From the NCBI GenBank assembly GCA_004431415.1, contig QPMI01000392.1:21168-85167 (forward strand): a stretch of DNA of 64,000 nt, read 5' to 3'. A program made the translations under genes and the position numbers. The notes under the pieces are model-generated. The model was not told where the DNA came from and did no database searches. It saw nothing but the letters and a program-made list of their open reading frames with translations. Source of the DNA: Cyanophora paradoxa CCMP329. Its lineage: Eukaryota > Plantae > Glaucophyta. Positions 13,116-42,615 of the stretch are shown one piece after another; positions within the stretch are counted from its first letter, which is position 1, and each line of letters begins with the position of its first letter.

Positions 13116-13162
13116 GGGATTCTCGGCGCCCGGGATTCCCGTCTGCCGCGTCGACAAAAGGG
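13116..13162 (+). promoter_or_regulatory. GGGATTCCC + TATA-like promoter
   Basis: GGGATTCTC 13116, GGGATTCCC 13132, GACAAAAGGG 13153, upstream of ATG 13269. Confidence 0.55.
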
Positions 13163-13268
13163 AGAGAGGCGGCCGAGCTCGGCACATTTGCGTGGTCGAA
13201 ACACGTCGACAACGACGGCAGCCACAGCACCTACAGCCGCAACCCGTAAACCCTTTTTGCAGAGAGCC

Positions 13269-14990
13269 ATGTCGACCGAGTCCGCCAACTTTGCCGCCGT
13301 CGACGCGTCGTCGGCCGCCGCGCGCGCCCTCTTCGGAGTCCGCCGGGCAGAGGCGTGGATCAAGGTCGGCTCGAGCCGCGCCATCGGGACGATCTGCGCG
13401 GCCGGCGCCGTCGCCGATGGCTCGGGCGGGGCGGCGCGCTTTGCCGTCCTCGTGCCGATGGTGCAGTCGCACTTTGCGTCCGTCATCAAGGGGACGAGCC
13501 TCTCGGCTGGCGCCCAGGAGGAGTGGACGCGTCTGCGGGTGGAGGTGGTCGAGAAGATTGGGGCCCAGCTCGTCCCCGGCGGCGGCTACGAGGCCGTGGG
13601 GGACATGTACCTGAGCCCCTCCGGATCGACGGCGCGCGATGTCGACGGGTCGATGCTTCTTGTCGTCGATTACATTCCTCGGCCGGGCCCCAAAATCATC
13701 GTCCGCATCCATCACCTGGAGATGCCGGGGCACGTCAGCCGCGGCTGGCTCGTTGAGGGTCGGGTGCTGCCTGCCGCGCCGGCGCCGGCCTCTGCAGGGG
13801 TGGCGCCGGCGCCGCCTGCACTTGCGCGCACCCCGCCGCCGGCCGCCCCCCAGCTCGCGATCGGCGGCGAGGTAACCGTCTTCGGGCTTTTCGCCTTTGG
13901 GGCCGGCGATCGCGTCTGCGGTCGCTCCGTCTCGTTGTTCGGCGCGGGATCGCGCTCGGGCTCTCCGCTCTCGATCTGGGCCGTGGTGGCGTTGGACGTC
14001 GGGATGGAGGCGCTCCGCGGGGGGGACTCGCTCGACGGCGAGGCGACGGATCGGAAGAGCGAGAAGGTCGTCGGCTGGATCGAAACGAGCCTTGCCGCCG
14101 AGCTGACGGCGTGGAACGGGGGGCGCCCGCTTCACGTGAGCATCCACGTCTACAACATCTGCTCGGGGGTGGATGCAGATATGGGACACATTCGCTTCGC
14201 CGCGGTGGCCATTCCCTGCGGGGAGGGGGAGACGCCCGTCGGCGAGTTTGTTGAGGGCGGGCCCACGCTGCCCAAGGAGGCCTTTTTCGGCCCTCACCCC
14301 GCGCACGCGAGCTGCATCAGGGCCCTGCGTCAGCGCGTGGCCGAACGGAACGCGCCCCTGGCAGGAGTGAGGCGGCGGGCGGCCGCGGGCGCCGTCGACG
14401 GCAAGAAGCTTAAGGAGGCGGCGGTGCGGCGGGCGGTGCCAGAGGACCTTCCGGAGGGGGAGGACGCGCTCCTTGCCCGCCTGCATCTGGCCATGGGCGA
14501 CGCGGCCGCCCGCGCCCTACCACGGGCCGCCCTGGCGAGGCGGGTCGCATGCCGCTCCACGGACCCCCGCATCCCCGAGGCGGCCGCCGCGGTCGGCGTC
14601 CGCTTCACCGCCCAGCACATCCTCCAGGCGGCCGGGCGCGGCGTCGACGTCGGGGGCGAGTACCTGGAGGCGATGTGCGCGGCGGCGGCCCCGGAGGAGC
14701 TGCGGGCGCTCGGGACGCGGCGGGACCTCGCCGAGGGGCTGCGGGCCGCCCTGGGCCGCCGCGGGGTCGCCCTCGCCGGCCCGAGCAACCGCGCCGCTCC
14801 CGTCGAGCCCGTCGTCGTGCGGGCGCCGACGGCGGCCGAGATGGCCGAGGCGGCGCAGCGCAGCCGGCAGAAGAAGCTGGAGGAGAAGGAGCTCCACCGC
14901 GCCCGCAACGAGGCCAAGCGCGCCGAGCGCGAGGAGGCGTCGACCTCGGGCCGCAGGAGCGGCCGCGCGACCCGCGGCCGCGCTCAGTAG
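13269..14990 (+). CDS. Intronless hypothetical protein, 573 aa
   Basis: Long ORF with globular-looking sequence; ATG in gccATG context after the shared promoter motif; basic C-terminus. Confidence 0.75.
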   Translation: MSTESANFAAVDASSAAARALFGVRRAEAWIKVGSSRAIGTICAAGAVADGSGGAARFAVLVPMVQSHFASVIKGTSLSAGAQEEWTRLRVEVVEKIGAQLVPGGGYEAVGDMYLSPSGSTARDVDGSMLLVVDYIPRPGPKIIVRIHHLEMPGHVSRGWLVEGRVLPAAPAPASAGVAPAPPALARTPPPAAPQLAIGGEVTVFGLFAFGAGDRVCGRSVSLFGAGSRSGSPLSIWAVVALDVGMEALRGGDSLDGEATDRKSEKVVGWIETSLAAELTAWNGGRPLHVSIHVYNICSGVDADMGHIRFAAVAIPCGEGETPVGEFVEGGPTLPKEAFFGPHPAHASCIRALRQRVAERNAPLAGVRRRAAAGAVDGKKLKEAAVRRAVPEDLPEGEDALLARLHLAMGDAAARALPRAALARRVACRSTDPRIPEAAAAVGVRFTAQHILQAAGRGVDVGGEYLEAMCAAAAPEELRALGTRRDLAEGLRAALGRRGVALAGPSNRAAPVEPVVVRAPTAAEMAEAAQRSRQKKLEEKELHRARNEAKRAEREEASTSGRRSGRATRGRAQ

Positions 14991-15339
14991 TCGGGTCGTG
15001 GTCATGTTCACGATCAGTGCGAAATACATAAATGTACCCTTAATTGGTTGTGCGAATCGGTGTTTCTCGCGACTCGTCTAGCGCGGGGCTCGACTGGGGC
15101 TGGCGGGGGGTACCCCGGTAGCCTCTCCATCCGCGCCGGCGCCCGAGAGAGCCGGGTGGGCTCCCGGGCGGGGAGCCGCGAGGCGGCAGGGTGCGAATCC
15201 GGCCGTCGCCGCGCGGGAAGAGCCCGGAGCCGGCCGCGGGGTAGACCCGGGCGGCGCCTCGCGCGCCGGTGCGGCGCGGGCGCCTGCGCGCCACCGCTCT
15301 CGGGAAATTTCAAATCGCACCCCGAATCAATATATTGGG

Positions 15340-15340
<1 letters not shown>

Positions 15341-15386
<46 letters not shown>
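15341..15386. repeat. poly-C tract (46 nt)
   Basis: Direct reading; lies between convergent genes. Confidence 0.9.
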
Positions 15387-15387
<1 letters not shown>

Positions 15388-15637: not shown

Positions 15638-16557
15638 CTAGGCACCGGGAGCGGGGCCGGGGCCGTAGCCCGCGGCCGTGCGCGAGGCCCGCCGCTGAAA
15701 CTCGCGGACCACGGGGAGCGCCGTGTACAGCGGGGTGGGGGCGAGGCCCCAGGCGGCGGCCGCGTGCCGCGGGCTGAGTCGCGGGGCCCCCGGCCCGCGG
15801 CTGAGGAGCACCGCCGCAGCGGCGACGGTGGCGGCGCGGATCTGCGGGATCCCGAGCTCGGGGGCCCTGCTCTCCCTGTGCCACCGCTCGGCCAGCGCGA
15901 GGGCGTCGGCCGTCTGGGCGCGGGTGCAGCCGAGGCGGGCCGCCAGCCCGGGCACGTAGAGGGCGGGCCCCACGCCCCCGTCCGTCCCGGGGGCGGGCGC
16001 CCCGGGGACCCTGCGGCGCAGCTCCCTGTAGCACCGGACGAGGGCGCGGCGCCGCGTGCCCTCGGGGCAGGCCGACTCGAACTCGCAGATCCGGCGCGGG
16101 ATATGCAGCGAGGTGCACGCCGAGTAGAGGGCCGCGAGGACCAGGAGCGAGTAGGGCCGCCCGTTGAAGAGTTCGGGCCGGAGCTTGAGCTGCCGCAGCG
16201 CCTCGGTCGCGGCGGCGGGGGGCAGGTTCAGCCGCTCGCAGGCGGAGCGGAGCTCCTCCAGCAGCCGCGGCCGTGCCTCGAGGGCGAGGCTCGTCGGCGA
16301 GGGTGGGCGCTTTGGTTTCGGGCGCTGGGCGCCGGCGGGGGCGGCGACGGCAAAGGCACCGGCGCCCGGGACGGGGGCGGGCCCGGCGCCCCGCGCGCCC
16401 GCACCGCCGGCCGGCGGCGCCCCTGGCTCGGGCTCGCGCTCGGGAGCGGCGGGGGTACAGCCCCGTTGCGCCTCGGGCGCGAGCCCGCCGTCCTCTCCGT
16501 CGATATCGTCGAGATCGATGTCCAGGTCGAGGTCGTCGAGCTCGAGGCTCGAATCGA

Positions 16558-16590
<33 letters not shown>

Positions 16591-16630
16591 TGGGGCCGGC
16601 AAAAGCCGGGGCGGGTGAGGCAGGGGCCAT
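15638..16630 (-). CDS. TFIIB-like cyclin-fold core (no Zn ribbon)
   Basis: CERLNLP..FNGRPYSLLVLAALYSAC..IPRRICEF (repeat 1); PALYVPGLAARLG..AATVAAAAVLL (repeat 2); TATAAAAG ~60 nt upstream. Confidence 0.8.
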
Positions 16631-16931
16631 ACTCCCGGGCTCCTGGTTGGTCCTCGACTGTCAGACCGCCGGCGGGGGCGGCCCCTCTTTATAGCCGGAA
16701 AGGGGGCGCGATTCCCGTCGACCGCAAGCCCGGGGGCTACGGGCCCGAGTTTGATCCTTTTCGTCTCGAATTCCAAATGAAATGAAATCGATTCGCAACT
16801 GTCACAATCGCAAATTACCGGAGCTACATCTAGATCCGTAGTTACGCATTCTACGTAATTACAACATACGATCTCATCGCGCGGGCGGCTCGGCGGCTCG
16901 CGCACGCCTTTGGCCCGCGGCGGCCCCCTGG

Positions 16932-17153: not shown

Positions 17154-17253
17154 GTCGTCGGGCGCGATCGCGAGTGCGGGAGAGGGGGGCCGGCCGCGGG
17201 GGGAGGACGTGAGCGTCGGCGGTCGAGTGCCAAACGAGGCGCGCCGCCATCCT

Positions 17254-18198
17254 TTATATAGGAAATTCCCCGGCCCCGGCCGCCCCGCGCGGGGGTACGG
17301 CCGAGGGAATCCGGGCCGCCGAGAGCTCGCCACGTGTCGAGGCCGCGCCCGACCTAGATTCCTCTGCGGACCGCTCCTCGTCCCCTCGGTTTTCTCGGTG
17401 GCCCCTTCGGTATTCTCGGTGCTCTTCATCTCCGGGACCCGTGGACGTGCGAGCTCGCTTCGATTTTCCATCGCGGGGACGGGCGGCGGGTCCGGGCCCG
17501 CTCCCCACGTCGCCGTCGAGCCCGAGGCCGCCACAGCAGCTCGGCCCGCCGTCGGCGCCCTCATCGGCGTCCATTTCTGGCGCCCCCCGAGGCCCCTCGG
17601 AGGACCCCTCTTGATCTCGATCTCGATCCGCCGCGCGCGGCTCCGGCGCCGGCGCCGCCCGCCGCCGGCGGCCCGGCCGGCGCTCCCTGGCCCAGCGAGC
17701 GTCCAGGATGCGCAGGAGCTCCTTGAAAGCGTCCTTGCGCGATGCCACGCCCCCCCCGCGCCTGGCGGTCGCGTCGGAGAGCGCCTTGCTGTCGAAGTAG
17801 GCGAGCACGTCCAGCATCTCAAAGTAGGCGTCCAGGTCGGAGGCGGCCGTCCCGGGCCACTCGCCCCGCGCGGCGGCGTCGATCCGCCGCACGGAGCGCG
17901 GTGAAAAGGGGACGTCGACGACGAGCGGGCGCTCGGGGGTGCCGGCGGCGCCGTCGGAGCACTCGGAGAGGGTCTGCAGGAGCGCGCTCGTCCTCGCGAG
18001 GCCGCAGCAGACTTGGACGACCTCGCCCTCTAGATCTCCCCCGCCCTCGCCCCCGCCCTCGGCCCCGCCCCCTCTGGCGCTCGGCCTGCAGCGCAGGGCG
18101 ATGCCGGAAGGCGCGCCGTCGGCACGGCAGGCAATGAGAGCCTCGGGCGCCGGTGCGCGCGGCGCCGTCGGCGTCCGACGGTCGTCGGCCGTTGCCAT
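17254..18198 (-). CDS. SKP1/BTB-POZ-like protein
   Basis: EGEVVQV..LARTSALLQTL..VDVPFSPRSVRRI..YFEMLDVLAYFDSKALSD parallels SKP1 DGEVFEV..S.TIK.M..LFELILAANYLDIK.LLD. Confidence 0.6.
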   Translation of the reverse strand: MATADDRRTPTAPRAPAPEALIACRADGAPSGIALRCRPSARGGGAEGGGEGGGDLEGEVVQVCCGLARTSALLQTLSECSDGAAGTPERPLVVDVPFSPRSVRRIDAAARGEWPGTAASDLDAYFEMLDVLAYFDSKALSDATARRGGGVASRKDAFKELLRILDARWARERRPGRRRRAAPAPEPRAADRDRDQEGSSEGPRGAPEMDADEGADGGPSCCGGLGLDGDVGSGPGPAARPRDGKSKRARTSTGPGDEEHREYRRGHRENRGDEERSAEESRSGAASTRGELSAARIPSAVPPRGAAGAGEFPI

Positions 18199-18424: not shown

Positions 18425-18486
18425 GGGATTCCCGGTGCGTCCGACAACGGGAATCCCACGAGCGCGGTCGGCTCCGTCTCTATAAA
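18425..18486 (+). promoter_or_regulatory. Paired GGGA(A/T)TCCC + TATAAA (divergent promoter region)
   Basis: GGGATTCCC 18425, GGGAATCCC 18449, TATAAA 18481. Confidence 0.65.
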
Positions 18487-18545
18487 TTGGATCGGACCCC
18501 GAGCACTTGGACAGTTGATGCGGGTACGGACCGCGGCCGGCGACG

Positions 18546-19436
18546 ATGAATTTGGAGGATTTGCAACGCGGATACGCCCACGCGATGGCTCGTCTCTCGC
18601 ATGATCCGGAGGGCCGTCGGTCAGCGGTCGGGCACGTGGCCTGGGTCGGCGTGCGCCCCGACACAATCTGCGATCTGCTCAGGTTTTTCTTGCGGGACGC
18701 TAGCCCGAATCGCGCTTATTTTAAGCTTCTCCGACGTTGCCCCGGCCGCGAGAAAATGGAGGCCTGGCTCCACCAGCTCTCGACCCGGGACTCGAGCGGA
18801 CGGGATGTCGACCCGGAACGCGACGCGCTGCTCTCAGAGGTGACCAAGTTCCTTCACGCGAACTGGAAGCACGTCATCTGCCACCCCATCTCCGGCGAGC
18901 CCGTCGTCCCGATCGAATTCAAGGGGATCCCCTTTGGAAGCCGCGCGCGCACCGAGCTGGCACCGCCCACCGCGGTCTCAAGGACCCTGCTCAGCCTCGG
19001 GGACAACGATCTCTTGGGGCTCCTCGGAATCGCCGCCGAGACGACGGAGGTGGACGCTACGGACCTGAGATGGCGCCTCGACGAGCTCCTCCGCACGGTC
19101 AACGCATGGAGGCGCTTCCTCCTCTTCAACCCGACGTACATTCCGCCCGCTGGCTCTTGCAACTACGAGGATTGCCTCGACCTATGGGACAAGATCTGCA
19201 AGATTGTAGATCCGTACACGTACACTCCGTCTGTGTCATGGACGGCGAAACGAATGGTGCGGCGCCGGCCCGGGGCCCCCGAGGTCTTTGCGAAGAGAAG
19301 CCAGTGGGAGGCATACAAGACACGCATACGCCGGACGATCGAGTGCTACAGTTTTGCCGATCTCTGGTACGAGGGCGCCGGCGTCGCCCTCGCCGCCGGC
19401 GCCGGTGCCAAGCGCCAGCGCCCTTGCACGCGGTAG
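18546..19436 (+). CDS. Intronless hypothetical protein, 296 aa
   Basis: Complex, protein-like ORF directly after the promoter motif; C-terminal KRQRP (NLS-like). Confidence 0.8.
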   Translation: MNLEDLQRGYAHAMARLSHDPEGRRSAVGHVAWVGVRPDTICDLLRFFLRDASPNRAYFKLLRRCPGREKMEAWLHQLSTRDSSGRDVDPERDALLSEVTKFLHANWKHVICHPISGEPVVPIEFKGIPFGSRARTELAPPTAVSRTLLSLGDNDLLGLLGIAAETTEVDATDLRWRLDELLRTVNAWRRFLLFNPTYIPPAGSCNYEDCLDLWDKICKIVDPYTYTPSVSWTAKRMVRRRPGAPEVFAKRSQWEAYKTRIRRTIECYSFADLWYEGAGVALAAGAGAKRQRPCTR

Positions 19437-19802: not shown

Positions 19803-20093
19803 TTAAGACCCTCCCTCGCCCTCGAGCCCACCGTCGCCGTCGACGACGTTGCCGGCGATGATTCGGTCCTCTTCTTCCATGAATCTGACTCCAAGCTCGA
19901 CGAGGTGCTCCCACGTCACCGACGCCTCGACTGCGACCAGATCTTCGAGCGTCTCGTAGTCGACGCCTGCGAGAAAGACCGTCTCTACGTCTTCAGCCCG
20001 CGTCGCCGTCGCGCCGGCGCCGTGCATCTCGCTCAGCTGCGGGCCGGCCGCGGGGCCCGCGAGGGCGATGGGCGTACGCATGCGCGGCGGCAT
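19803..20093 (-). CDS. Small acidic protein with one TWE..V.LG.RF.E..RI motif
   Basis: ATAAAAGGG at ~20160 and GGGATTCCC 20183 upstream; motif shared with 37450-37812. Confidence 0.7.
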   Translation of the reverse strand: MPPRMRTPIALAGPAAGPQLSEMHGAGATATRAEDVETVFLAGVDYETLEDLVAVEASVTWEHLVELGVRFMEEEDRIIAGNVVDGDGGLEGEGGS

Positions 20094-20571
20094 TGCCTCC
20101 CTGATTGACGCCTCTTTTCTGCGGAAATGGAGTCTGACCGGATGGTGCGATGGACCATCCCTTTTATGGGTCTGCCGACGCCGGGATTCCCATGGCCGAC
20201 CCCCGCGTCGACGCCTGGATTCCCAACGTTGACCCCTGCGCCCCCGCGCCAGGTACGTAGACGGTCCTAGTAGGCCTCTGCGCGGGCAACGATCAGAGTT
20301 TGATTTCGCACGCATGTTCCCGGGTTTGAGGTTCTACGGTTTTGTTTGTAATTACAAGCTTCAGATCGAATCATCAACGGTGCATGCACATAGATGTGAC
20401 ACGCGCTATAGCTAGCGCCTGCAATTATCGTTGCCGGGGCCAAACAGAAACGTTGTACTGTAATTATGATTATAACATGTACCTGCATACCTAGGCATAT
20501 GCCTCCCTGGACAGAGATCTAGAGATCTAGATATGCATGCATATCTAGCTATAGGATCTAGATCCGCGTAA

Positions 20572-20811
20572 TTAGAGCGGCTTGGCGGTGGCGACGAGGA
20601 TGATCTCGCCCGTCGAGGGCGAGACGGTCAGCTCGCACTCGACGCGCAGGTTGAGCGCCCGCAGGCCACGGGTGATGAATGGGTCGGAGAGGATATCCTG
20701 GCAAAGTCGCTCCATCGACGCGGCCGCCCCCGGGGGGGCGACGGCGTACATCTTGTCGCCTGTCGTGGTGATCAGGGTGTGGAAGGGGAGGCCGGCGTTC
20801 CGGTTGTCCAT
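20572..20811 (-). CDS. Small hypothetical protein, 79 aa
   Basis: Protein-like ORF; two GGGAATCCC at 20881 and 20894 upstream; 22-bp palindrome downstream. Confidence 0.65.
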   Translation of the reverse strand: MDNRNAGLPFHTLITTTGDKMYAVAPPGAAASMERLCQDILSDPFITRGLRALNLRVECELTVSPSTGEIILVATAKPL

Positions 20812-21302
20812 GCTGCGGGTGGCAGGAGCTAGAGTGAGAAGTCGCCCACCGCCCAGCGCAGTTTTGTGCGCCCATCAATCGGGAATCCCAGGCGGGAATC
20901 CCAACAGGTACCGGTGCGGCGCCGTCAACGTTAACGTGCTACGGTACCCACGACCTTGAGCTCGATCGCGATATCGATCCGGATCTCGAGCGTGTGGGCA
21001 CGTGCACCGGCCTCGTGCGCACGTGATGATGCATATGATCACCGCGTGTCGAACTCCCACTGATATAATAATATATCCACGTGCTGGCGCGTGCGCCGGC
21101 CACTGCGGGGGCTGCGACGTGAATTGAGCGCAAGCGCTCCTCGTCGCGATCTTATTCGAGTTCCGAATGCGCTTTTTGAACCCGAAACCCTCCGGCGGCC
21201 AACGGCGGCCAACCCCCTGTCGATCGGATTTTCTGGATCTTTGATTGCGTTCAATGTCATGAGTCACAAAATGAATTTAATTTCTGTACATCGACTTGAA
21301 CA

Positions 21303-21734
21303 CTAGTACTGCCACCACGAGGCTGCATAGCACTCGGGCATAGCCACGATAGCTGCAGGCGTGCCACAAAGCGGGCGGGGCGGATCCGAATCGATGTCCC
21401 ACTCGCGATCGCACGTCCGTGCGCTCCATGAGGTCTGGAGCTCGCCTTTGCCGGCGCACCCCTCGCCCGCTTCGAATTTCGCCCTCCAAACGGCGTCCAC
21501 GTCGACGTCGACGTCCGAGCCACGTGCACGCAGGTCGTCGGGTTTGAATTTGTCGTCTAGATCTCCGAGCAGCGTACACGTGTAGCCATCGGGCCCGAAA
21601 TTGCCCTGGATGAAGGCCAGCGCGTGCGCCTCGCCCTCGCGCTCCTCCAGCTCGTTTACCATTTGAAGTTCATCCTCGTATGCGTAGCCCTCGTCCGTGG
21701 GCACGAGCGGGGTGAAGCAACGTGCGGTCGACAT
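21303..21734 (-). CDS. Acidic hypothetical protein, ~143 aa
   Basis: MSTARC start lies downstream of GGGATTCCC 21840 / GGGAATCCC 21884. Confidence 0.6.
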   Translation of the reverse strand: MSTARCFTPLVPTDEGYAYEDELQMVNELEEREGEAHALAFIQGNFGPDGYTCTLLGDLDDKFKPDDLRARGSDVDVDVDAVWRAKFEAGEGCAGKGELQTSWSARTCDREWDIDSDPPRPLCGTPAAIVAMPECYAASWWQY

Positions 21735-29674: not shown

Positions 29675-29706
<32 letters not shown>

Positions 29707-32700: not shown

Positions 32701-34052
32701 AGGCGGTCCGGCGGCACCTCGGGCCCGCTCGGATCGACCGCGGCCGCCGCGGCGGCGGCCGGGTCGGTCGCGCCCGGCGCGCCGCGGCGGGGGCGCTTGG
32801 GCCCGCGGCCGCGCGGCCGACCGCCCTCTTCGCGATCGCCGGCGCCCTCTGCCCTCCGCTTGGGGGCGGCCCGGCGGGCGAGGTCGGCGCCGGCGGGGCG
32901 CGGGAGGGCCGGGAGGTCGAGGAAGACGGCCTCGGCGAGGGCGGAGCGGAGCCAGGCGTAGAAGTCGCGGTTCCAGGCGACGATGGCGGGGTCGGCCCGC
33001 GCCGTGCAGAGGTCGACGGCGTCGCCGCGGGCGGGATCGACGAGGGCGGCCCGGTCGGCGATCGCCACCGGGTAGCGCAGCGTCCAGCCGTGGTAGTGCG
33101 TGTCCTCCCGCATCCCGCAGTTCGGGTTCCACGTGCTCACGTCCACGGCCCCCGCCTCGAGCAGGGCGCCGGCGAGCGCGGGCCCGAGCTTGCGCTCCAT
33201 CCAGGGCTTCACGACGGCCGCGAGGGCGTCGGCGCCGCGCCACGAGGACCGCCTCTTGTCGACCATGCCGGGCACGGCGCGCGTGCCGGCCGACCGCGAG
33301 GCCCGCTTCCAGTCGCCCGGGAAGCGGGCGCGGGCGCGGGCGAGCCTGAGCTCCCACTGGCGCAGGTCCTCGGCGTCGTAGAGGCGGGCGGCCTCGGAGC
33401 GGGCGATCAGCTCGCGCTCCATCACGACGACGTGGAACCCCTTGAGGCCGCTGAAGACGACGAGGGCGCGCAGGCCGGACGCCTCGCAGGCGGCGGCGAG
33501 GTCGTGGGCGAGGCGGGCGACGCGGGCCACGTCGGGGAGGCGGCGGCAGTACTCGCCCAGCGTGCGGGCCTCGGCCAGGACGCCGCAGAGGTACTCTTTC
33601 TTGCACTCGGCCCGCTGCGCGTCGCCCACCGCCCCCTCGCAGACCTCGGCCGGCACCTCGACGTGCACGTCGAGGTCAAAGGCGCCCAGAAAGGCGAGCT
33701 TGGCGGCGCGGCCGTCGCGCAGCCGGACGGCCGGCTGGAGGCAGACTTGGGCGACGTTGCGGGGGCGGGACGCCGACGGGGCGCCCTGCACGCCGGCGAG
33801 GGCGTCGAGGGGGACCCGCCGCCACGAGGTGCGGTAGATGGCGTCCCGGTGCGCCCCGGGGCGCCCGATCTTGACAAAGAGGGCGGCGCTGGCAGGGTCG
33901 ACGTCCGAGGCGGGCGGCACCGAGGGCTGCGCGCGGGGGGGGGCGACGCCCGCCGGCGCCGCCGCCCCGTCCCTGGCGCGCTTCGGCGCGGGGACGGGCC
34001 CCGCGGCGCCCCTCGGCCCGGCGATGCAGAGCGGCCCCTCGGCAAGTTCCAT
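28569..34052 (-). CDS. AEP primase + Zn finger + UL9-like superfamily-2 helicase (viral-type replication / origin-binding protein)
   Basis: AEP motifs FDLD, FSGLKGFH, VDVSTW; CLHGRVHSSQN..HCFSLAC Zn finger; UL9-like motifs RGGMGDGKT, STVESV, VILDEG, SDADL, YNYAIHQGADY, WQLAGRVR. Compensating frameshifts ~29150-29590. Confidence 0.88.
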
Positions 34053-34425
34053 TCCGTTCTCGCTTTTTCCCTGGCGCAGGCGAGGAATGGCGATCAACGC
34101 CCCTGCTCCCCGCGGGGCGGGCCCCTTTTCTTGGCGGAAACGAACGGGAATCCCGCGCCGCGGCCGGCCGTACCCCCGACCTCCGCGGCCGGTGCCGCTC
34201 CCCGCGCGATCCGAGCCGGCGGGGCGCGGCTCCCCGCCCGCCGCGTACCCCGGCGAGGTGCCCCGAGCCCCTCCCCTCCCCGCCCCCGTCCCCGCCCCGC
34301 ACGCCCGCCGCGTCCGACCATAAAAGGGCGCCCCTGGGCGGGGGGTAGACGAGGAAGAGCGAGGGGTGCGCGACCGCAGTACCCCGTCCGCTCGAACTCG
34401 GTCGACGCAGGGTTCTCCCTACCCC

Positions 34426-35100
34426 ATGAGCGCCCGCGGGCACCGGGCCACCCCGTACCCCAGGCGCTTCGGCGGGGAGCGGGACCCGCTCCGCGCGCGG
34501 AGCGGGCACGGTCTGCACGAGTACGACGCGGCGCGCGGCTCCATCCGCGTGCCTCTGCCCGTGGCGCGCGGCAAGTCCTGGGTCGAGACCGAGGTCGTCG
34601 AGGCGCCGGCGGGGGGCGACCCGCGCACGGACCCCGCCGCCCTCGCCCGCTTCGTCTCCCTCGGCCACCTCGCCGCCCTCACCTGCTGGTGCATGCGGAA
34701 CGCGTCGAGCGCCGAGCTGCCGGCCGGCGCGGCCGGCGCCGACGAGAGGGACCCGTGCGCGGTCTGCCTGGAGCCGCACGCGCGGCCCGTCCGCCTCGCC
34801 TGCAACCACGTCTTCTGCCTCCACTGCCTCGCCTCGCTGCCCCCCGCCGACTTTCGCTGCCCCCTCTGCCGCGCCGCCCCCGGCGCCGGCATCACCTTTC
34901 TCGCCGGCGAGCACGCGGCGCGGTGGCGGGCGGACCCGCAGGGCTACGGGCGGCGCCTCGACGAGGGGGCGGCGGCGCTCCCCGCCTGGGCGCCGCAGGC
35001 GTTTCGCGATCGCTACCGCTCGGCCGCGTGGCTCGTCCCCCCCGAGCTGCACTCGGGCCCTCGCCCCCGGCCCGCCCCCGCGGCCGCTCACGATCAGTGA
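34426..35100 (+). CDS. C3HC4 RING finger protein (putative E3 ligase)
   Basis: CAVC..LACNHVFCLHC..CPLCR; ATAAAAGGG 34320; GGGAATCCC 34146 in the intergenic region shared with the divergent primase gene. Confidence 0.85.
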   Translation: MSARGHRATPYPRRFGGERDPLRARSGHGLHEYDAARGSIRVPLPVARGKSWVETEVVEAPAGGDPRTDPAALARFVSLGHLAALTCWCMRNASSAELPAGAAGADERDPCAVCLEPHARPVRLACNHVFCLHCLASLPPADFRCPLCRAAPGAGITFLAGEHAARWRADPQGYGRRLDEGAAALPAWAPQAFRDRYRSAAWLVPPELHSGPRPRPAPAAAHDQ

Positions 35101-35153
35101 TCCTCCCATCTTCCCCCTTGCAATATTAATTGATTGGAACGTGCATGTGCTCT

Positions 35154-35790
35154 CGGTGAGACGAGGCGAGGGCGCGGCAGGGGGCGGGGGGGGCGGGGGT
35201 ACGGCCGAACCGAGCCCCGCCGCTTATGGCCCGCCTGGTCGATTCCGGCTACGGCGCCTGTACCCCTGCGCGGACCCGCGAGCTCGCGGTGAGACGAGGC
35301 GAGGGCGCGGCGGGGGGCGGGGGGGGCGGGGGTACGGCCGAACCGAGCCCCGCCGCTTATGGCCCGCCTGGTCGATTCCGGCTACGGCGCCTGTACCCCT
35401 GGGCGGGCCCGTGAGCTCTTCGGTGAGACGAGGTGAGCGGCGGGGGGCGGGGCGAGCGGGGGGTACGGACGGACCGGGCCCACCGCTTATGGCCCGCCTG
35501 GGCAATTCCACCGATGTCCTGCGGGTCCTCGCTGAGAGGATGCGGGGGGCCAGGGGTAGTCGAAGAGGGATGGAAAAGGGCAGCGTTAGCAGGGGTACAC
35601 ACGCCGTAGCCGGAATCGACCAGGCCGCCCCTACTGCGCGCCAGCTGCAGCGAGCCGAACGGGCCGCAGGGCGAGCGAGGGCGAGCGCGAGGGGCGTACG
35701 AGAATCGGAGAGGGCGCGATTGAGGGGTACACACGCCGTAGCCGGAATCGACCAGGCCGCCCCTACTGCGAGCCAGATGCAGCGAGCCGT
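35154..35790. repeat. Bipartite array 3: 2 B units + truncated unit (+), then 2 A units (-)
   Basis: B cores 35237, 35370; reverse A cores 35592, 35724. Confidence 0.93.
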
Positions 35791-36027
35791 ACGGGGTGCT
35801 CGCCGCGGGTGCGCGAGGCCGGGGGTGCGCGAGGGGGTCCCCCGAACGGGCCCGCTCGGGCGTGGCATCTGCCAGATCTAGAGCAGCGGGCGGCCGCCGG
35901 CCAACTCGCCACAGGCTCGGCGAGGCGTGACGCGACCTTGCGCTCGAGCTCTTTTCCCTGCGAGGGCTGGGCTTCACGTGAACGGGCCGGGAAGGATTGA
36001 GGGGGGTAGGGCGCAGCGGGCTCCGTC

Positions 36028-36099
36028 GGGAATCCCAACCGCGGCCGGGAATCCCCCACGCTCCCGGGTCACCAAGGGAATCGTGGGTCTATAAAAGGG
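36028..36099 (+). promoter_or_regulatory. GGGAATCCC x2-3 + TATAAAAGGG
   Basis: Motifs at 36028, 36047, 36076; TATA 36090; duplicated at 38140-38211. Confidence 0.7.
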
Positions 36100-36205
36100 T
36101 TCGCGGCCGCTCCGGTCGGCATCGAGCGTCATTCGCACTCGCGGCCTCGCACGCGCACCCGAAAGCTTACACCAGCCCAGACCTAGACCGCCCCAGCGAT
36201 CGATC

Positions 36206-36817
36206 ATGAACGCCGCCAAAGTGGAGAGCCTGGTCATTCGCGCGACGGACCTGTTCGAGGACGACGAGCCAAAGCTCGTCGCCGCCGGCGCCAAACGGCC
36301 CCTCGACGCGCACGAGCGGATTTTCAGCTCTAAGCCTCTGGAGGAATGCAGCCCCAAGGAGCACCGGGAGATCCTCCGGGTCTGCGCCGACGGAGCCCGC
36401 GAAGTCGTGAACCTCGACTGCCGCGCCAGGATCGACGCGAAGCGCGCCAGAGCCGTAGACGCCATCGACCGAGCCTTCAAGTGCGCCCGTATCGAGCGAT
36501 ACGCCGGCACCACATCCGACAACTTCTGTAAGAAGATCAGCAATTACCAGGGGGCATGGACGGATGCGAAGAGCTTCCCCCGCCTCGAGCGGGAGATGTG
36601 GGATGGCTACGTGAACGAAGGCAGCCGGTACCGCGGGCCCCGGGCGAACAGCGGCGGGTACGCCAAGGCGGAGCTCGCGTTCCGGCTCTACCGGGAGGCG
36701 GTGCTCTGCCAGGAGCTGGAGTGGCGCAAGCCGATCTACGAAGAGCTCGTTGCCGAGCTCGACGCGGCCCTCGCGGCCGCCCCCGCCCCCGCCCCCGCTA
36801 GCGCTCGTGACCAGTGA
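36206..36817 (+). CDS. Hypothetical protein, 203 aa (duplicate, lacks FRKKGQ)
   Basis: Promoter motif; ORF conserved in the duplicate. Confidence 0.85.
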   Translation: MNAAKVESLVIRATDLFEDDEPKLVAAGAKRPLDAHERIFSSKPLEECSPKEHREILRVCADGAREVVNLDCRARIDAKRARAVDAIDRAFKCARIERYAGTTSDNFCKKISNYQGAWTDAKSFPRLEREMWDGYVNEGSRYRGPRANSGGYAKAELAFRLYREAVLCQELEWRKPIYEELVAELDAALAAAPAPAPASARDQ

Positions 36818-37449
36818 TCCTTTCCCTCTCCCTTCTTCCCCTTGGCCGTACCTGTACGCGTGGGGCCTCGCCTTTTCTCTCCAGACCCGCATGTATACGT
36901 ATATGTGTGTTGCGTGAAACAAACGTTGTAACTAATTTATAAACCGACCCGTACCAGTGTGAACCATTGAACGCTATATATAGCTACGTATACCCACACT
37001 GTGTGTGAGACTCAGAGAGTGATCATGGGAGGAAATCTAGAGACGATGCGAATTCGAAGAGCAAGAACGTTAACGGGTACGCGAGCTTAGGCCGTACCCG
37101 AAATCCGGAATCGGTCACACCGCCTACAACGTATATTTTACGTATATGTACGTATACTGCCGCAGTGCAGCCGCACGCCCCGCGCGCGATACCTCTGCCT
37201 TCTGTTATGCGTACTACGCTAGCTTTCGCTAGAATACGTTTACTAGTACGTATACGTTTACGTATGGAAGTACTGGTGCAAGCATGGGCATTGATATTCG
37301 CATGCATCCTTATGCATCGTGGCCATGGCGTGAAGCTTATATCGCCTTTGACGCAGAACCGTACATGTAATTATATCCAACCAAATGCAAGCTAATTACA
37401 AGCGTTACTGCCAAGCGCATGCATACGTATATGCGACCTCCCAATCGCC

Positions 37450-37812
37450 CTAGGCCTCGCACTCGGCGCGGATGCGATTGTCGTCCTCGATGAACCGCTC
37501 CCCGAGCCTCACGATCTCCTCCCACGTCACCGACGCCGCCGCAGCTCGAATCTCCTCGGGCGAGAGGCTCCCGAGCCAAACGATGTCCGCGTTGTCGTAT
37601 ACGTACGCGCCGTTGTCGACGGGTGTGTCCTCAGCCTCGGACGTCGACTCGGCGCGGATGCGGTCGTCGTCCTCGATAAACCGATCAGCGAGCCTCACGA
37701 TCTCTTCCCACGTGCACGTCATCGTCGCCGCCGCGCACGTTTCCTCGCCCATTGCAACCGACGTGACAGTATCGGCGCCGTTGGCTTCAATGTACGCGTA
37801 CGCGTTGGACAT
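37450..37812 (-). CDS. Small acidic protein with two TWEEIVRL.(D/E)RFIEDD.RIRAE repeats
   Basis: TATAAAAG ~37880 and GGGATTCCC 37929 upstream; internal repeat. Confidence 0.8.
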   Translation of the reverse strand: MSNAYAYIEANGADTVTSVAMGEETCAAATMTCTWEEIVRLADRFIEDDDRIRAESTSEAEDTPVDNGAYVYDNADIVWLGSLSPEEIRAAAASVTWEEIVRLGERFIEDDNRIRAECEA

Positions 37813-38124
37813 GTTTCCCAAACCGCTTTGTTTTGCGAAAGGGAACTGACGATGTGGTCTACGAGGCCAGGGCGGATCTCTTTTATAGCCCTTCTCTCTT
37901 CTGCACTGCGGCATCTCATGTGCATGCCGGGATTCCCGATCTCTGACCGAAAAAGATTTCTGAGACGGATTCCGTGCGTGCGCGCCCCCGTCGGTAAGGG
38001 TACACGTACACGTGTACATGTGCGCATGCACAGCCTGAGCAGGAGTGAAACAGCGCCGTACGCTGGCGATCATTCGACATTCAACGAATTGTGCACACGT
38101 GCAGACGTGTACGGCAACGCTGCA

Positions 38125-39287
38125 GCAGCGGGCTCCGTCGGGAATCCCAACCGCGGCCGGGAATCCCCCACGCTCCCGGGTCCCCAAGGGAATCGCGGGT
38201 CTATAAAAGGGTTCGCGGCCGCTCCGGTCGGCATCGAGCGTCATTCGCACTCGCGGCCTCGCACGCGCACCCGAAAGCTCACGCCAGCCCAGACCTAGAC
38301 CGCCCCAGCGATCGATCATGAACGCCGCCAAAGTGGAGAGCCTGGTCATTCGCGCGACGGACCTGTTCGAGGACGACGAGCCAAAGCTCGTCGCCGCCGG
38401 CGCCAAACGGCCCCTCGACGCGCACGAGCGGATTTTCAGCTCTAAGCCTCTGGAGGAATGCAGCCCCAAGGAGCACCGGGAGATCCTCCGGGTCTGCGCC
38501 GACGGAGCCCGCGAAGTCGTGAACCTCGACTGCCGCGCCAGGATCGACGCGAAGCGCGCCAGAGCCGTAGACGCCATCGACCGAGCCTTCAAGTGCGCCC
38601 GTATCGAGCGATACGCCGGCACCACATCCGACAACTTCTGTAAGAAGATCAGCAATTACCAGGGGGCATGGACGGATGCGAAGAGCTTCCCCCGCCTCGA
38701 GCGGGAGATGTGGGATGGCTACGTGAACGAATTCCGCAAGAAAGGCCAAGGCAGCCGGTACCGCGGGCCCCGGGCGAACAGCGGCGGGTACGCCAAGGCG
38801 GAGCTCGCGTTCCGGCTCTACCGGGAGGCGGTGCTCTGCCAGGAGCTGGAGTGGCGCAAGCCGATCTACGAAGAGCTCGTTGCCGAGCTCGACGCGGCCC
38901 TCGCGGCCGCCCCCGCCCCCGCCCCCGCTAGCGCTCGTGACCAGTGATCCTTTCCCTCTCCCTTCTTCCCCTTGGCCGTACCTGTACGCGTGGGGCCTCG
39001 CCTTTTCTCTCCAGACCCGCATGTATACGTATATGTGTGTTGCGTGAAATAAACGTTGTAACTAATTTATAAACCGACCCGTACCAGTGTGAACCATTGA
39101 ACGCTATATATAGCTACGTATGCCCACACTGTGTGTGAGACTCAGAGAGTGATCATGGGAGGAAATCTAGAGGCGATGCGAATTCGAAGAGCAAGAACGT
39201 TAACTTAGTAACGTTAACACGGGTACGCGAGCTTAGGCCGTACCCGGATCCGGAGTCGGTCACACCGCGGCCGCCTACAACGTATAT
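38125..39287 (+). repeat. ~1.1-kb direct duplication, copy 2
   Basis: See copy 1. Confidence 0.95.
38318..38947 (+). CDS. Hypothetical protein, 209 aa (duplicate)
   Basis: Same as 36206-36817 plus an 18-nt in-frame insert. Confidence 0.85.
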   Translation: MNAAKVESLVIRATDLFEDDEPKLVAAGAKRPLDAHERIFSSKPLEECSPKEHREILRVCADGAREVVNLDCRARIDAKRARAVDAIDRAFKCARIERYAGTTSDNFCKKISNYQGAWTDAKSFPRLEREMWDGYVNEFRKKGQGSRYRGPRANSGGYAKAELAFRLYREAVLCQELEWRKPIYEELVAELDAALAAAPAPAPASARDQ

Positions 39288-39752
39288 AGCCAGTAAACGT
39301 CGTAACAGGCGGGGACGCGCCCGCAATCTCCCCAAAGAGGCTCCCGACCAGGCTAGCCTATATATAGCTAGTAGCGTGCAGGCGCCCGCACACCGCGGCC
39401 GTATGCGTGGCGGATCGTGATCGATCGAAAGGCAATGTTTCAACTCATGATCATGATCAGTACGTATAGTGATTATTCGACAGATCATAGAGCCGCAAAC
39501 ATGTACACGTGCATACATACGTATACGTACGCATGCGCATGCGAAATATCCATTTCCGATCGATGTCATGATCTCCCACGAGCGCTAGCGCGAGTTTTCG
39601 TACCGTAGCTATAGATATAGATATATATATATAGTGTGTGTGCGTATGCACGCTTAAGCTTGCGCATGCGCATGCGCATATGTATACCAACGTGTATATA
39701 AACGTATACCGCACAACGCGTACCCCTCGCGATCACAATCAACCTTAGCTTC

Positions 39753-40787
39753 CTAATCAACGACAATGTACTCGATCTCGGCCTCTGCGGACGCGCCCGG
39801 CGCGGCGGAGCGCTCGGCGTCGGGCTCCTGCTGTCGCTTGCGCTTGCGACGCTCGGCCTTTTTCTCGAGATCGCGCACACGCCTCTCCGGATCGGGGATT
39901 TCGGCCTTCTCAACCAGCCAGCCACGGACGTCGGCGGGGTCGAAGCGCTCCCCCAGCGTCTCCGGGTCGTAGCCGGCCACGGGGAGGGCCCCGCGCGGGC
40001 GGTGATGCAGACAGCGACCGGGGACGAGGCGGTAGCGCTTGACGATCTCCGCCATGGAGAGGAGGCCCGGGCGGGCGGGGAGGCCGCGGCGGCGCTCCCG
40101 CTCCCTGACGATGGCGGCATAGTTCGTAAAGCCGGCCGCGTCGACGGCGAGGTGCGGGATGGTGGTTCCGTAGAGGCCGTACTTGACGCTGGCCTCGCGG
40201 GACTCGCCAGAGATGGCGCTGATCACGTGACCAATGGCCACGCCGTTCGCGGTGCTCGTGTAGGGAGCGGCGCAGTCGGCGCAGACGGGCCACTTTGTGA
40301 TCGGGTCGATAAACGGCGTGTCGGCCGCGGGGCTCCAGTCGCGGTGGCCGTAGAAGCACGCCTTGCAGCGCAAGGCGGCAAACGCAAAGTACGCGGCGTG
40401 GGGCCCTCCGCGCGGGGCCCTCTCCATGTTGGTGACGCCCAGCTCGAATTCCGTCGTGCACAGCTGCGCCCACGCCTGGTCGTGCTCCTTGACGATGGTG
40501 CGGAAGCGGCGGCAGAGGGATCCCAGGTACATGTTGGCGCCCTTGGCGCCCAGCATGGTGGCGATCTTTTCGCGGATGATCTCGTCGGGGAGGTCTAGAA
40601 ACGACACCGACGTCGACTTTGGCGCGGCAGGCACGATCGTGAGATCGATCTCGCGATTAATGTCGGCCTCGGCCTCGGCCGCGGGCGCCGGCGCCGGCAA
40701 CGCGCCCGGGCGGCCTCCATGCGCCACCGCCGCCACGAATTCGGGCTCGAGCTCAAGTGCACGGGTCGGCATCGGCGTCAGGGTCAT
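39753..40787 (-). CDS. F-box protein with XPA-like CxxC..CxxC region
   Basis: SFLDLPDEIIREKI..L..LGSLCRRFR..W..LC; CKAC..PVCADC; GGGAATCCC 40910. Confidence 0.85.
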   Translation of the reverse strand: MTLTPMPTRALELEPEFVAAVAHGGRPGALPAPAPAAEAEADINREIDLTIVPAAPKSTSVSFLDLPDEIIREKIATMLGAKGANMYLGSLCRRFRTIVKEHDQAWAQLCTTEFELGVTNMERAPRGGPHAAYFAFAALRCKACFYGHRDWSPAADTPFIDPITKWPVCADCAAPYTSTANGVAIGHVISAISGESREASVKYGLYGTTIPHLAVDAAGFTNYAAIVRERERRRGLPARPGLLSMAEIVKRYRLVPGRCLHHRPRGALPVAGYDPETLGERFDPADVRGWLVEKAEIPDPERRVRDLEKKAERRKRKRQQEPDAERSAAPGASAEAEIEYIVVD

Positions 40788-41355
40788 CTAGATCTTTGGA
40801 TGGATCGGGTGCGGTACCGGTGTCGCCGTCGTTTCTTTGGGTCGGCGCGCCCGAGTGACGAAATGGCGCCGCGCGATCCCTTTTGTCGGCCGCCGGGTTT
40901 TTCGTGAACGGGAATCCCGACCGAGGGGCCGGGGTGCGCATGCCGGAAGGAGCATACCCCTCAGGGCCTGTGCACTTGCACGTGACGCCGCGCCCCTTCA
41001 GGTCCGCGCCCTTTAATTTCCACCCTTGGCCGCGCCGCGAGAGGTCTCGAATTCATGTTTCGCGCGCAACGTGCGCGAGCCGCTGAGCGATTTTAAATTT
41101 CCTACGTATACGCACACATATACATCGCATGTAACGCATGTAACTTAAAGCTCAGTTTTATGTCCTTGGAACGTTAACTGATTTGATTACAAACATTATC
41201 GCTTCGCACATGGACTGACGGTCACTTTGCTGTTCCAAGCAAATCTCGTTCGATTCATGATATCGATCGGTATAGCTATCGATTATCATTTCTAGGTTTT
41301 TAGCTATTCGTATTCCACACCTGCACTGTGACAACTGCCGCTAACCTCTTTTCGG

Positions 41356-42327
41356 TCAAGGAGCGGTAACGAATTCTCCCAGATCGACGTCGTATATGTA
41401 GTTCATATAGCTGATCATGACGCCACCCCCGGCCGCCCCCGCGGCAGGCGCAGCCGGCGCGGTGGCATGCATATGCGCAGCCGGCGCGGTGTGCTGCTCG
41501 AACTGTCCGCGGCGGCGCTTGCGGTACTCCGCCGCCCTCTCGAGATTTCGTGCACGCCCCTCTGGATCGGGGATGCCGGCGCCGGCCTCATCGACCAGCC
41601 AGGCACGGATGTCGGCGGGGTCGAAGCGCTCCTCCAGCGTCTCCGGGTCGTAGCCGGCCGCGGCGAGGGCCCCGCGCGGACGGTGCTTCGTATTGCGGCG
41701 GGGGACGAGGTGGTAGCGCTTGACGATCTCCGCCATGGAGAGGAGGCCCGGGCGGGCGGGGAGGCCGCGGCGGCGCTCCCGCTCCCTGACGAGGGCGGCG
41801 TAGTTCGTTCGACCGGCCGCGTCGACGACTAGGTGCGGGATGGTGTTTCCGTAGAGCCCGTAATTGTCGTGGCTGTTCTTCGATTCATAAGAAATGGTGT
41901 AGATGCTGCTGATCGGGGTACGATCGCAGCGGGCGTCGGTGGAGCAGAGGCGCATGTTCAGGAGCGGGTCCATCACCATCGGCTCCTCGCTGGGCTTCCA
42001 GAAGCCGCGCTCAAAGCACAAGCGGCAGCGCGTCGCGAAAAAGCCGGCGTAGACGTTGTAGGCCGTCCCCGGCGGAGCGTCTTCGGGAACCACGATCCCG
42101 AGCTGCGTCTTGCACAGGGCCGCCCACTCGCCGTCGTCGTTTTTGACCAAGTCGCGAAAGCGGCGGTTCGTGGACCCCAGGGTGCGCTTGGCATCCCAGG
42201 GCCCGAGCCGCTTCGTTACCATGCGAAGGATCTCGTCGGGGAGGTCGGCGATCGACCTGGGCGCCGCCGGCTCGGAAAGGGGCGCCGCCGCCGCCGCCGC
42301 CGCCGCGTGCGTCGTCTCCGTGGCCAT
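41356..42327 (-). CDS. F-box protein, paralog of 39753-40787
   Basis: SIADLPDEILRMV..L..LGSTNRRFR..WAALC; ATAAAAGGG 42421, GGGA(A/T)TCCC 42458 and 42477. Confidence 0.85.
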   Translation of the reverse strand: MATETTHAAAAAAAAPLSEPAAPRSIADLPDEILRMVTKRLGPWDAKRTLGSTNRRFRDLVKNDDGEWAALCKTQLGIVVPEDAPPGTAYNVYAGFFATRCRLCFERGFWKPSEEPMVMDPLLNMRLCSTDARCDRTPISSIYTISYESKNSHDNYGLYGNTIPHLVVDAAGRTNYAALVRERERRRGLPARPGLLSMAEIVKRYHLVPRRNTKHRPRGALAAAGYDPETLEERFDPADIRAWLVDEAGAGIPDPEGRARNLERAAEYRKRRRGQFEQHTAPAAHMHATAPAAPAAGAAGGGVMISYMNYIYDVDLGEFVTAP

Positions 42328-42615
42328 CGGTATCTCTAGCGGTACGAGAATTGGTGGGGGGTGGGCGGCCTTTTCTCGGGCGATAGTGCACGCTCGTGTT
42401 GTGAGATGGCACCGCGCAACCCCTTTTATCGACCCCGCGGTCTCGACGGCTCGACCCGGGATTCCCGGCGCCGCCCGGGAATCCCTTGGCATTCTTCCCC
42501 CCTCCCCCCCTTCCACCCCCTCCACCCCGCGCCTGCATCTACCCCGTAACGTCTCGGGGGATCCTGAAGGCGCTTTGTTCGTCGTTGGAGAAAGAGGGAG
42601 AGGGGGTAGGGGGAT

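Follow-up and report, generated by a model that had tools for sequence, protein, structure and literature searches.

A 64,000-nucleotide stretch of nuclear DNA from the glaucophyte Cyanophora paradoxa CCMP329 (contig QPMI01000392.1 of assembly GCA_004431415.1, forward strand, positions 21,168 to 85,167; hereafter the window, with position 1 at its first letter) carries repeated copies of the 9-bp palindrome GGGA(A/T)TCCC, written GGGAWTCCC below, in front of a series of compact genes. The locus raises the question of what this palindrome does there and whose genes it serves. An earlier reading made from the letters alone (the sequence-only reading) had taken it as part of the promoters of a co-regulated, virus-like set of genes. 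The analysis described here indicates that GGGAWTCCC is probably the promoter-proximal predicted site of one dimeric, sequence-specific factor that would co-regulate approximately 14 compact genes of a replicative element private to Cyanophora. No paper on this motif or on this element was found in the literature.

Over-representation and confinement of the palindrome

The window was found to contain 17 exact copies of GGGAWTCCC compared to 1.48 expected from 100 dinucleotide shuffles, none of which reached 17 (largest count, 5). Under a third-order Markov model with the tandem arrays masked, the expected number was 0.44, a 38.8-fold excess that places the palindrome among the most over-represented 9-mers. 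All exact sites were located outside coding sequence and were confined to 29.4 kb (13132-42485) of the window; none occurred in the remaining 34.6 kb, which holds few promoters for comparison. The copies fall into 11 loci. Two of these, with the pairs 36028/36047 and 38140/38159, arose by a recent duplication of a promoter together with its gene, which leaves 10 independent loci. The sequence-only reading had placed all 17 exact sites correctly, and its imperfect copies at 16708 (GCGATTCCC) and 17305 (GGGAATCCG) were found as described; the site it had listed at 22600 is not exact and corresponds to a one-mismatch copy, AGGAATCCC, at 22599-22607. As a class, one-mismatch palindromes showed no enrichment (26 sites with at most one mismatch compared to 24.9 expected). 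Six of the nine one-mismatch copies (13116, 16708, 17305, 20216, 22599 and 38188) adjoin an exact copy or precede a TATA-like box.

When 15 sites were oriented toward the nearest A-rich box and aligned, information content did not extend beyond the 9-mer and the single base next to it at either end, with C before it in 10 and G after it in 12 of the 15 sites. The extended form is Y-GGGAWTCCC-G, or roughly C-GGGAWTCCC-G. The central base was A in seven sites and T in eight, so the orientation of the motif is irrelevant. The 120-nt flanks of the 10 loci had a mean ungapped identity of 30% and a maximum of 38%; these flanks are unrelated, so no single cassette was copied to these loci. Paired copies were spaced irregularly, 13 to 44 nt from centre to centre.

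A TATA-like box, often an initiator-like element, and a compact gene follow the palindrome

At all 10 independent loci a TATA-like box was present 5 to 60 nt from the motif. When 2000 draws were made from positions with a GC content of at most 0.68 within 13-43 kb, the mean was 0.85 of 10 loci and the largest value was 6; across the window, both strands counted, the box pattern itself has only 25 matches. The consensus of the box is W-M-AAAA-GGG or TATAAA, which upholds, in a sharper form, the (A/C)AAAAG-type TATA box that had been proposed downstream of the motif. The boxes were spelled ACAAAAGGG, ATAAAAGGG, TATAAAAGGG, AGAAAAGGGG, ACAAAAC and TATAAAT, and the gaps between the proximal motif and the box were 13, 13, 14, 15, 23, 23, 27, 28, 34 and 41 nt. 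An initiator-like BBCABW, with its A at an offset of 26-36 from the start of the box, was found in eight of 13 promoters, the chance level being 0.069 per promoter.

Further downstream, an ATG located 60 to 120 nt after the box opened an intronless open reading frame (ORF) on whichever strand the box faced. These ORFs were uninterrupted over 79 to 1827 codons and were coding-like, since the GC content at third codon positions (GC3, 0.75-0.96) was higher than that at second positions (GC2, 0.46-0.66) in 14 of 14, and three of them have a counterpart among the public gene models of C. paradoxa. A one-mismatch palindrome held the same position in three further promoters (that of the TFIIB-like gene described below, and those with boxes at approximately 17260 and 22582, both on the reverse strand). 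The order of box, initiator and ORF agrees with the claim that the motif is intergenic and lies upstream of compact genes on either strand. The accompanying claim, that the motif does not precede intron-rich genes for a tyrosine recombinase and a histone H3, holds for the histone-like gene near 53 kb and for the rest of the window outside 13132-42485, where no exact copy was found; the recombinase identity was without Pfam support.

Two further sequences were observed near these promoters. A CAAAAAC box occurs at 21870 on the + strand, between the two motif copies of the G21.7 promoter (Table 1). The sequence ACCGGTACC/GGTACCGGT was present seven times compared to 0.23 expected (at 699, 11077, 15579, 20907, 23407, 40813 and 42697); some copies lie near palindrome promoters (20907 and 40813), and it is possibly the site of a second factor.

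Paralogous genes keep the palindrome and the box

G36a and G36b (Table 1) are a recent duplicate with 96.7% protein identity. G40 and G42 are 54-55% identical at the protein level, and their upstream DNA has diverged except for the palindrome (ATT and AAT centre, respectively) and a block of approximately 30 nt that runs from the box through an initiator-like CCAT(T/C)TC. G20k and G37.8, which are 40-55% identical over their shared domain, both keep the palindrome and an ATAAAAG box; they form a small private family with a repeated motif of approximately 25 residues (..TWE..V.L..RF.E.DDRI.A..). Judged from the DNA alone, the promoter-grammar reading is well supported by this retention in paralogues together with the anatomy of the promoters.

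Coverage by RNA-like contigs

Contigs were available from three runs, X1, X4 and X5 (two studies), which are RNA by guess, none of them being on record as RNA. As assembled contigs only, they give neither transcript starts nor a ranking of genes by depth, and parts without coverage are uninformative. Contigs of the three RNA-like runs extended from 36004, 36023 or 36069 to approximately 36950 over G36a, and the RING-finger gene was covered in all three runs too. G42 was covered by contigs 41763-42487 and 41914-42431 (X1 and X4), G40 by contig 40082-40873 (X1), and parts of the giant gene by contigs of three RNA-like runs. The region 37.2-39.6 kb was nearly bare in the RNA-like runs, and the depth of the DNA-like run there was 11-16.

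In two of the RNA-like runs, contigs joined 34255 to 34347. A 2-base shift fits equally well, so that the skipped 91 nt (34258-34348) are bounded by GT and AG on the + strand, and the DNA-like run reads straight through them. The segment has the appearance of an intron spliced out of the RING leader, and the GT..AG joint, absent from the DNA-like run, argues for these runs being RNA. The RING gene's own ATAAAAGGG box lies within the skipped segment, and the spliced contig continues across the palindrome at 34146 and enters the giant gene at its 5′ end.

AT-rich or mixed palindromic 9-mers, over-represented 16- to 70-fold, were also observed between genes and often just past stop codons. They include GTATACGTA (for example at 19584, 23180, 36893-37597, 39023-39521 and 41103), AGATCTAGA (15599, 20515, 23027 and 53828) and GCATGCGCA (39531-39670). 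Unlike GGGAWTCCC, these 9-mers are also found in the flanks (1-6 kb, 52-54 kb and 63 kb). The RNA-like contigs of G36a end at approximately 36950, right after such a cluster. These 9-mers are possibly 3′-end or termination signals.

Gene content of the element

The largest of the genes encodes a giant protein for which EukProt holds two C. paradoxa models, one with 100% and the other with 98% identity. A HMMER search of 1.84 billion representative proteins returned 11 matches, all from C. paradoxa and one of them the window's own model. The family occupies nine contigs at 30-100% identity; it is therefore multi-copy, internally old and, in that library, found in C. paradoxa only. In a VIA structure search with a model of the N-terminal part (pLDDT 57), the top eight rows were all archaeo-eukaryotic primases or primase-polymerases, with Z scores of 6.7 to 4.6 (caution level 8). 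Foldseek returned the same primase families with E values of 0.26 or higher, and Pfam LigD_Prim-Pol gave sub-threshold matches on two paralogues of the giant protein. A family profile of the middle part matched four PDB sequences named 'Replication origin-binding protein' (E = 1e-4 to 4.8e-4), which we take to be the herpesvirus UL9 helicase. The Pfam match of the single sequence to Herpes_ori_bp (PF02399; E = 0.058) scored 11.9 bits where the cut-off is 20, and phmmer against PDB with the helicase piece alone gave no relevant match. From sequence profiles and a modelled structure, we assign it with moderate confidence as a putative primase-helicase-type replication protein.

A second gene encodes a TFIIB-core-like protein. 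The ORF carries the two cyclin-type core repeats: phmmer against PDB matched the archaeal TFIIB core 1ais_B over residues 124-275, spanning both repeats (E = 6e-4), and the Pfam TFIIB repeat was matched below the cut-off (E = 0.18). With the structure model (pLDDT 54.6), Foldseek ranks 1 to 17 comprised six rows of TFIIB crystal structures and eleven chains of RNA polymerase II (Pol II) pre-initiation complexes, which carry no subunit label in the output; the best match had a probability of 0.97 and E = 0.078. No N-terminal zinc ribbon or B-reader was found in this ORF, as its first 120 residues are acidic or Pro/Ala-rich with a single cysteine. An upstream exon is unlikely because a TATA-like box lies approximately 60 nt before the ATG. 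A plausible place of action for the protein is the set of core promoters described above; the core of TFIIB touches DNA to either side of a TATA box.

The sole homologue of the TFIIB-core-like protein is C. paradoxa tig00021535_g22221.t1 (98% identity), and that of G1 is tig00021535_g22222.t1 (98% identity, also 573 aa). These two models are neighbours and share a contig with g22215, the 98% copy of the giant gene; at least one second copy, or a haplotype, therefore keeps this gene order. Few other relatives were found. G296 had no Pfam match, and no usable ESM Atlas match was obtained for either G296 or G1. Pfam at E ≤ 1 recognised only the F-box among 11 cluster ORFs, and PHROGs gave no match for 11 proteins. 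In the flanks, Pfam gave one sub-threshold coiled-coil match among 108 ORFs of 1-11 kb and the histone exon only among 23 ORFs of 43.5-64 kb, and Rfam had no match on the window.

On the evidence of protein comparisons and modelled folds, the element is best described as a Cyanophora-private, multi-copy, putatively replicative, virus-like unit predicted to encode its own TFIIB-like factor. The term 'virus-like' used in the sequence-only reading gains support from the primase-like/UL9-like giant protein, whose only paralogues are from C. paradoxa, and from the TFIIB-core-like protein, but no capsid or packaging gene was recognised. Regions derived from giant viruses are described in C. paradoxa, with virus-derived genes methylated and silent, in the available part of PMC12344493, and polinton-like viruses are mentioned in this species in that of PMC12220804. 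Neither source, as far as available and with supplements left aside, yielded a link between its regions and this locus.

Other features were noted in and around the cluster. An ORF with a GIY-YIG nuclease domain (45766-46227, - strand, E = 1.5e-8) lies outside the motif zone. A few kb past it lies ORF 48257-48898 (- strand), which by eye has the look of a SAM-like tyrosine recombinase N-terminus; the recombinase of the sequence-only reading is without Pfam support. Divergent H3-like histone-fold exons, split by introns, occupy a low-GC island at 52845-53356 on the + strand (histone-fold exon 53150-53356), with no palindrome upstream; the Pfam Histone match of this protein (E = 6.5e-5) is just under the cut-off. 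A 90-nt tRNA-Ala(GGC) called by ARAGORN at 51994-52083 (+ strand) had no Rfam match and is probably false. Five interspersed tandem arrays (11364-12669, 24714-28333, 35149-35509 continuing to approximately 35820, 56561-58456 and 60169-61294) have units of 112-158 nt in up to approximately 15 copies and lack GGGAWTCCC. Most of them share a core of approximately 30 nt (GGTCGATTCCGGCTACGG...GTACCCC) in both orientations. They sit between gene clusters, a layout that recalls how repeats are interspersed in the genomes of large DNA viruses. Homopolymer C/G tracts of 30-45 nt and G-rich low-complexity sequence also occur between genes (7438-7480, 8340-8370, 15342-15386 and 42600-42675).

Table 1. 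Palindromes, promoters and genes of the Cyanophora paradoxa element, by position in the window
Feature	Position	Strand	Description
Exact GGGAWTCCC	13132, 18425, 18449, 20183, 20881, 20894, 21840, 21884, 34146, 36028, 36047, 37929, 38140, 38159, 40910, 42458, 42477		
G1 promoter	13116-13162	+	imperfect copy 13116-13124, exact copy 13132-13140, 13 nt, ACAAAAGGG box at 13154; initiator-like A at offset 31
G1	13269-14990	+	573-aa ORFan, intronless; GC1/2/3 = 0.76/0.57/0.89
TFIIB-core-like protein	15638-16630	-	330 aa; acidic N-terminus, then two cyclin-type repeats
TFIIB-like gene promoter	16682-16716	-	one-mismatch GGGAATCGC (16708-16716 on + strand), 14 nt, TATAAAGAGGGG from 16693
One-mismatch motif 17305-17313	17249-17313	-	followed by TATATAAAGG near 17260; initiator-like GGCACTC approximately 30 nt on; downstream gene uncertain
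G296 promoter	18425-18487	+	motifs 18425 and 18449, 23 nt, TATAAAT at 18481
G296	18546-19436	+	296-aa ORFan gene; coding-type GC periodicity
G20k	19803-20093	-	96-aa acidic protein, paralogue of G37.8
G20k promoter	20159-20224	-	imperfect copy 20216, exact copy 20183-20191, 15 nt, ATAAAAGGG from 20167
G20.8	20572-20811	-	79-aa ORF
G20.8 promoter	20859-20902	-	motifs 20894 and 20881, 13 nt, ACAAAACTG from 20867
G21.7	21303-21734	-	143-aa ORF
G21.7 promoter	21804-21892	-	motifs 21884 and 21840, 27 nt, ACAAAACGGG from 21812
One-mismatch promoter	22574-22607	-	motif 22599-22607, 20 nt, ATAAAAGGG from 22582; then 141-aa ORF 22109-22534
Giant replication-type protein (putative)	28569-34052	-	1827-aa ORF; primase-polymerase-like N-terminal domain and P-loop helicase-like part
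Giant-gene promoter	34122-34154	-	motif 34146-34154, 14 nt, AGAAAAGGGG from 34131
RING-finger gene	34426-35100	+	224 aa; Pfam zf-C3HC4_3, E = 7.3e-7
G36a promoter	36028-36099	+	motifs 36028 and 36047, 34 nt including a third, two-mismatch copy, TATAAAAGGG at 36090
G36a	36206-36817	+	203-aa ORFan gene
G37.8	37450-37812	-	120-aa acidic protein; two copies of the domain in common with G20k
G37.8 promoter	37878-37937	-	motif 37929-37937, 41 nt, TATAAAAGAG from 37887
Duplicated G36 unit	38140-38947	+	motifs 38140 and 38159, box 38202; G36b 38318-38947, 209 aa
G40	39753-40787	-	344 aa, paralogue of G42
G40 promoter	40878-40918	-	motif 40910-40918, 23 nt, ACAAAAGGG from 40886
G42	41356-42327	-	323-aa F-box protein; Pfam F-box, E = 4.9e-5
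G42 promoter	42421-42485	-	motifs 42477 and 42458, 28 nt, ATAAAAGGGG from 42429

Discussion

The palindrome is read here as a site for a dimeric factor because its surroundings are built like a Pol II promoter: the palindrome is short, indifferent to orientation, single or paired and placed at variable distance, and it is followed by a degenerate TATA sequence plus GGG and by an initiator at canonical spacing. Host Pol II with the TATA-binding protein would use these core promoters, and the palindrome would recruit a dimer, either activating or repressing, from the element itself or from the host. The TFIIB-core-like protein of the element may join in at these TATA-GGG core promoters and would thereby give it a transcription apparatus that is partly private. 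The proposal of a virus-like co-regulated regulon is partly supported: the motif behaves as a promoter element (strictly intergenic, orientation-free, with its box and often an initiator-like element) and lies in a virus-like gene context, whereas the label 'early' is unsupported.

Three other explanations were weighed. It is rather unlikely that the palindrome is an ordinary host factor site, common in C. paradoxa promoters of the TATA type, that the genes are host genes of a lineage-specific or long-domesticated kind, and that over-representation results only from the density of short intergenic promoters here. Gene composition and codon bias are host-like (GC3 up to 0.96), the RNA-like contigs suggest transcription in ordinary cultures, and no viral structural gene was found in the ORFs scanned. 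In contrast, not one exact site occurs in the other 34.6 kb, although it holds the histone-like gene, the GIY-YIG gene and several coding-like ORFs, and the genes that bear the motif are ORFans or members of C. paradoxa-only families beside a multi-copy, divergent replicative giant gene. We consider it improbable that the palindrome is a site of replication initiation (for example by the UL9-like helicase), recombination or nuclease action that is intergenic because coding sequence excludes it. Herpesvirus origin-binding proteins, which the helicase part of the giant protein resembles, bind short sites arranged as inverted repeats, and the motif is often paired; however, directional coupling to a TATA-like box at 10 of 10 loci, to an initiator and to an ATG is not expected of origins, and the sites are spread over approximately 14 promoters rather than clustered, with irregular pair spacing. 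An artefactual origin of the pattern, whether through recent segmental duplication or through chance in DNA of high GC content, is hardly credible: the 36 kb/38 kb pair is indeed a recent duplicate and one-mismatch variants are not enriched overall, but ten independent loci have unrelated flanks and the observed count was reached in none of the shuffles.

Several observations weigh against the reading of a dimer site that co-regulates the genes of a private replicative element. GC-rich genes beyond 42.6 kb are without the motif, and the RING gene's own ATAAAAGGG box (34320) has no motif within 70 nt, the nearest being the shared copy at 34146. Helical phasing of the motif-to-box or pair spacing was not evident by eye, the spacing being variable. 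For G36a (36004-36069) and G42 (42487), some RNA-like contigs reach past the predicted box on its upstream side; transcription could therefore begin elsewhere, or some DNA could be present in the runs. Neither Pfam nor PHROGs returned capsid, packaging or integrase domains above threshold in the ORFs scanned. Among the element ORFs no DNA-binding domain beyond the TFIIB-like core was recognised, and no candidate for the binding factor emerged from them. Finally, the primase, UL9-like helicase and TFIIB assignments come from sub-threshold or moderate scores and from low-confidence models (pLDDT 57 and 54.6).

Among known systems, the kappaB site of NF-kappaB (Rel) is similar in its GGGA and TCCC half-sites around a central A/T and in being a palindrome suited to a dimer. 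The likeness to kappaB pointed out in the sequence-only reading is confined to these half-sites: the kappaB core is 10-11 bp (GGGRNWYYCC; 11-mer probe GGGGATTCCCC) compared to 9 bp here, only the copy at 36047 among the 15 sites fits the 10-mer (by eye, either strand), and no Rel-homology domain was matched by Pfam in any window ORF scanned. We know of no Rel proteins from Archaeplastida. Other candidates were compared by eye with their consensus sequences; the plant E2F site WTTSSCSS fits only six of the 15 sites, and neither the heat-shock element (GAAnnTTC) nor STAT sites (TTCNNNGAA) gave a fit. The motif is unlikely to be a TFIIB recognition element, given a distance to the box that ranges from 13 to 41 nt.

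Large DNA viruses share promoter motifs among their genes, such as the mimivirus early motif AAAATTGA and the early-gene motifs of chloroviruses, which lack an RNA polymerase of their own and encode TFIIB-like factors. As is proposed for the window, one short motif precedes many genes of a single foreign replicon and so defines a regulon. In contrast, the mimivirus and chlorovirus motifs are AT-rich, non-palindromic and placed relative to the start codon, and those of mimivirus are read by the viral polymerase, whereas the Cyanophora motif, a palindrome, is rich in GC and stands at varying distances before a TATA-plus-initiator, in GC-rich nuclear DNA where no structural hallmark gene was seen. 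Nuclear DNA viruses that rely on host Pol II are, as an analogy, closer in architecture. They have palindromic activator or repressor sites near the TATA box, such as papillomavirus E2 ACCN6GGT, herpesvirus immediate-early TAATGARAT and the baculovirus IE1 palindromes; as is proposed here, a single or paired site for a dimeric factor lies tens of bases before the TATA box of host Pol II promoters, on a replicon that brings origin-binding and primase functions as well. The factors themselves (E2, IE1 and others) have no sequence or protein homology to the element.

A search of IMG/VR with the motif-plus-box pattern gave at least 120 loci, with a single match in each of the 80 tabulated. Two motifs plus a box were found in 17 IMG/VR loci and 12 metagenome loci, in low-GC phage-like or tandem-repeat DNA. 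No match was obtained by tblastn with 12 window proteins against the fetched IMG/VR and metagenome loci, and no relative of the promoter grammar was found among them. One phage-like IMG/VR contig, L125 (= L136; contigs of 170 kb and 50 kb), has GGGATTCCC 17 times in 10 kb, in intergenic DNA. Its copies are mostly paired 30 nt apart inside TAGGGGATTCCCCTA, after hairpin terminators and before TTGAC boxes. The 9-mer core, the pairing and the intergenic position upstream of promoter-like boxes are shared with the C. paradoxa locus, but the phage-like DNA is of bacterial type with 44% GC and sigma-70-like boxes, a whole cassette of 60-90 nt is repeated, and there is no protein similarity. This is probably a separate system, made of operator or promoter repeats of some large phage, and the likeness is a convergent use of the same palindrome, an analogy and not kinship.

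Glaucophytes are one of three lineages with primary plastids, and to our knowledge almost nothing is known of their promoters, transcription factors and viruses. If the reading of GGGAWTCCC as a promoter-proximal dimer site holds, palindrome, TATA-GGG box and initiator would provide a testable promoter grammar for C. paradoxa that could serve expression tools. Combined with the giant primase-helicase gene, this grammar would be a handle for finding every copy of the element. Some of its genes appear in RNA-like assemblies, compared to the silent, methylated virus-derived genes described in the available part of PMC12344493. The finding would also represent a mobile or viral element that brings its own paralogue of a general transcription factor to host Pol II-type promoters. 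A fuller scenario, which we put forward only tentatively and regard as doubtful, is that these are resident, still transcribed nuclear replicons of an undescribed virus lineage, with an archaeo-eukaryotic primase/UL9-like helicase fusion and a private Pol II programme run through a TFIIB paralogue without a zinc ribbon at TATA-GGG core promoters, in which an element-encoded dimer on the kappaB-like palindrome would act as a latency/induction switch. Such a switch would be comparable to herpesvirus immediate-early control, in a glaucophyte.

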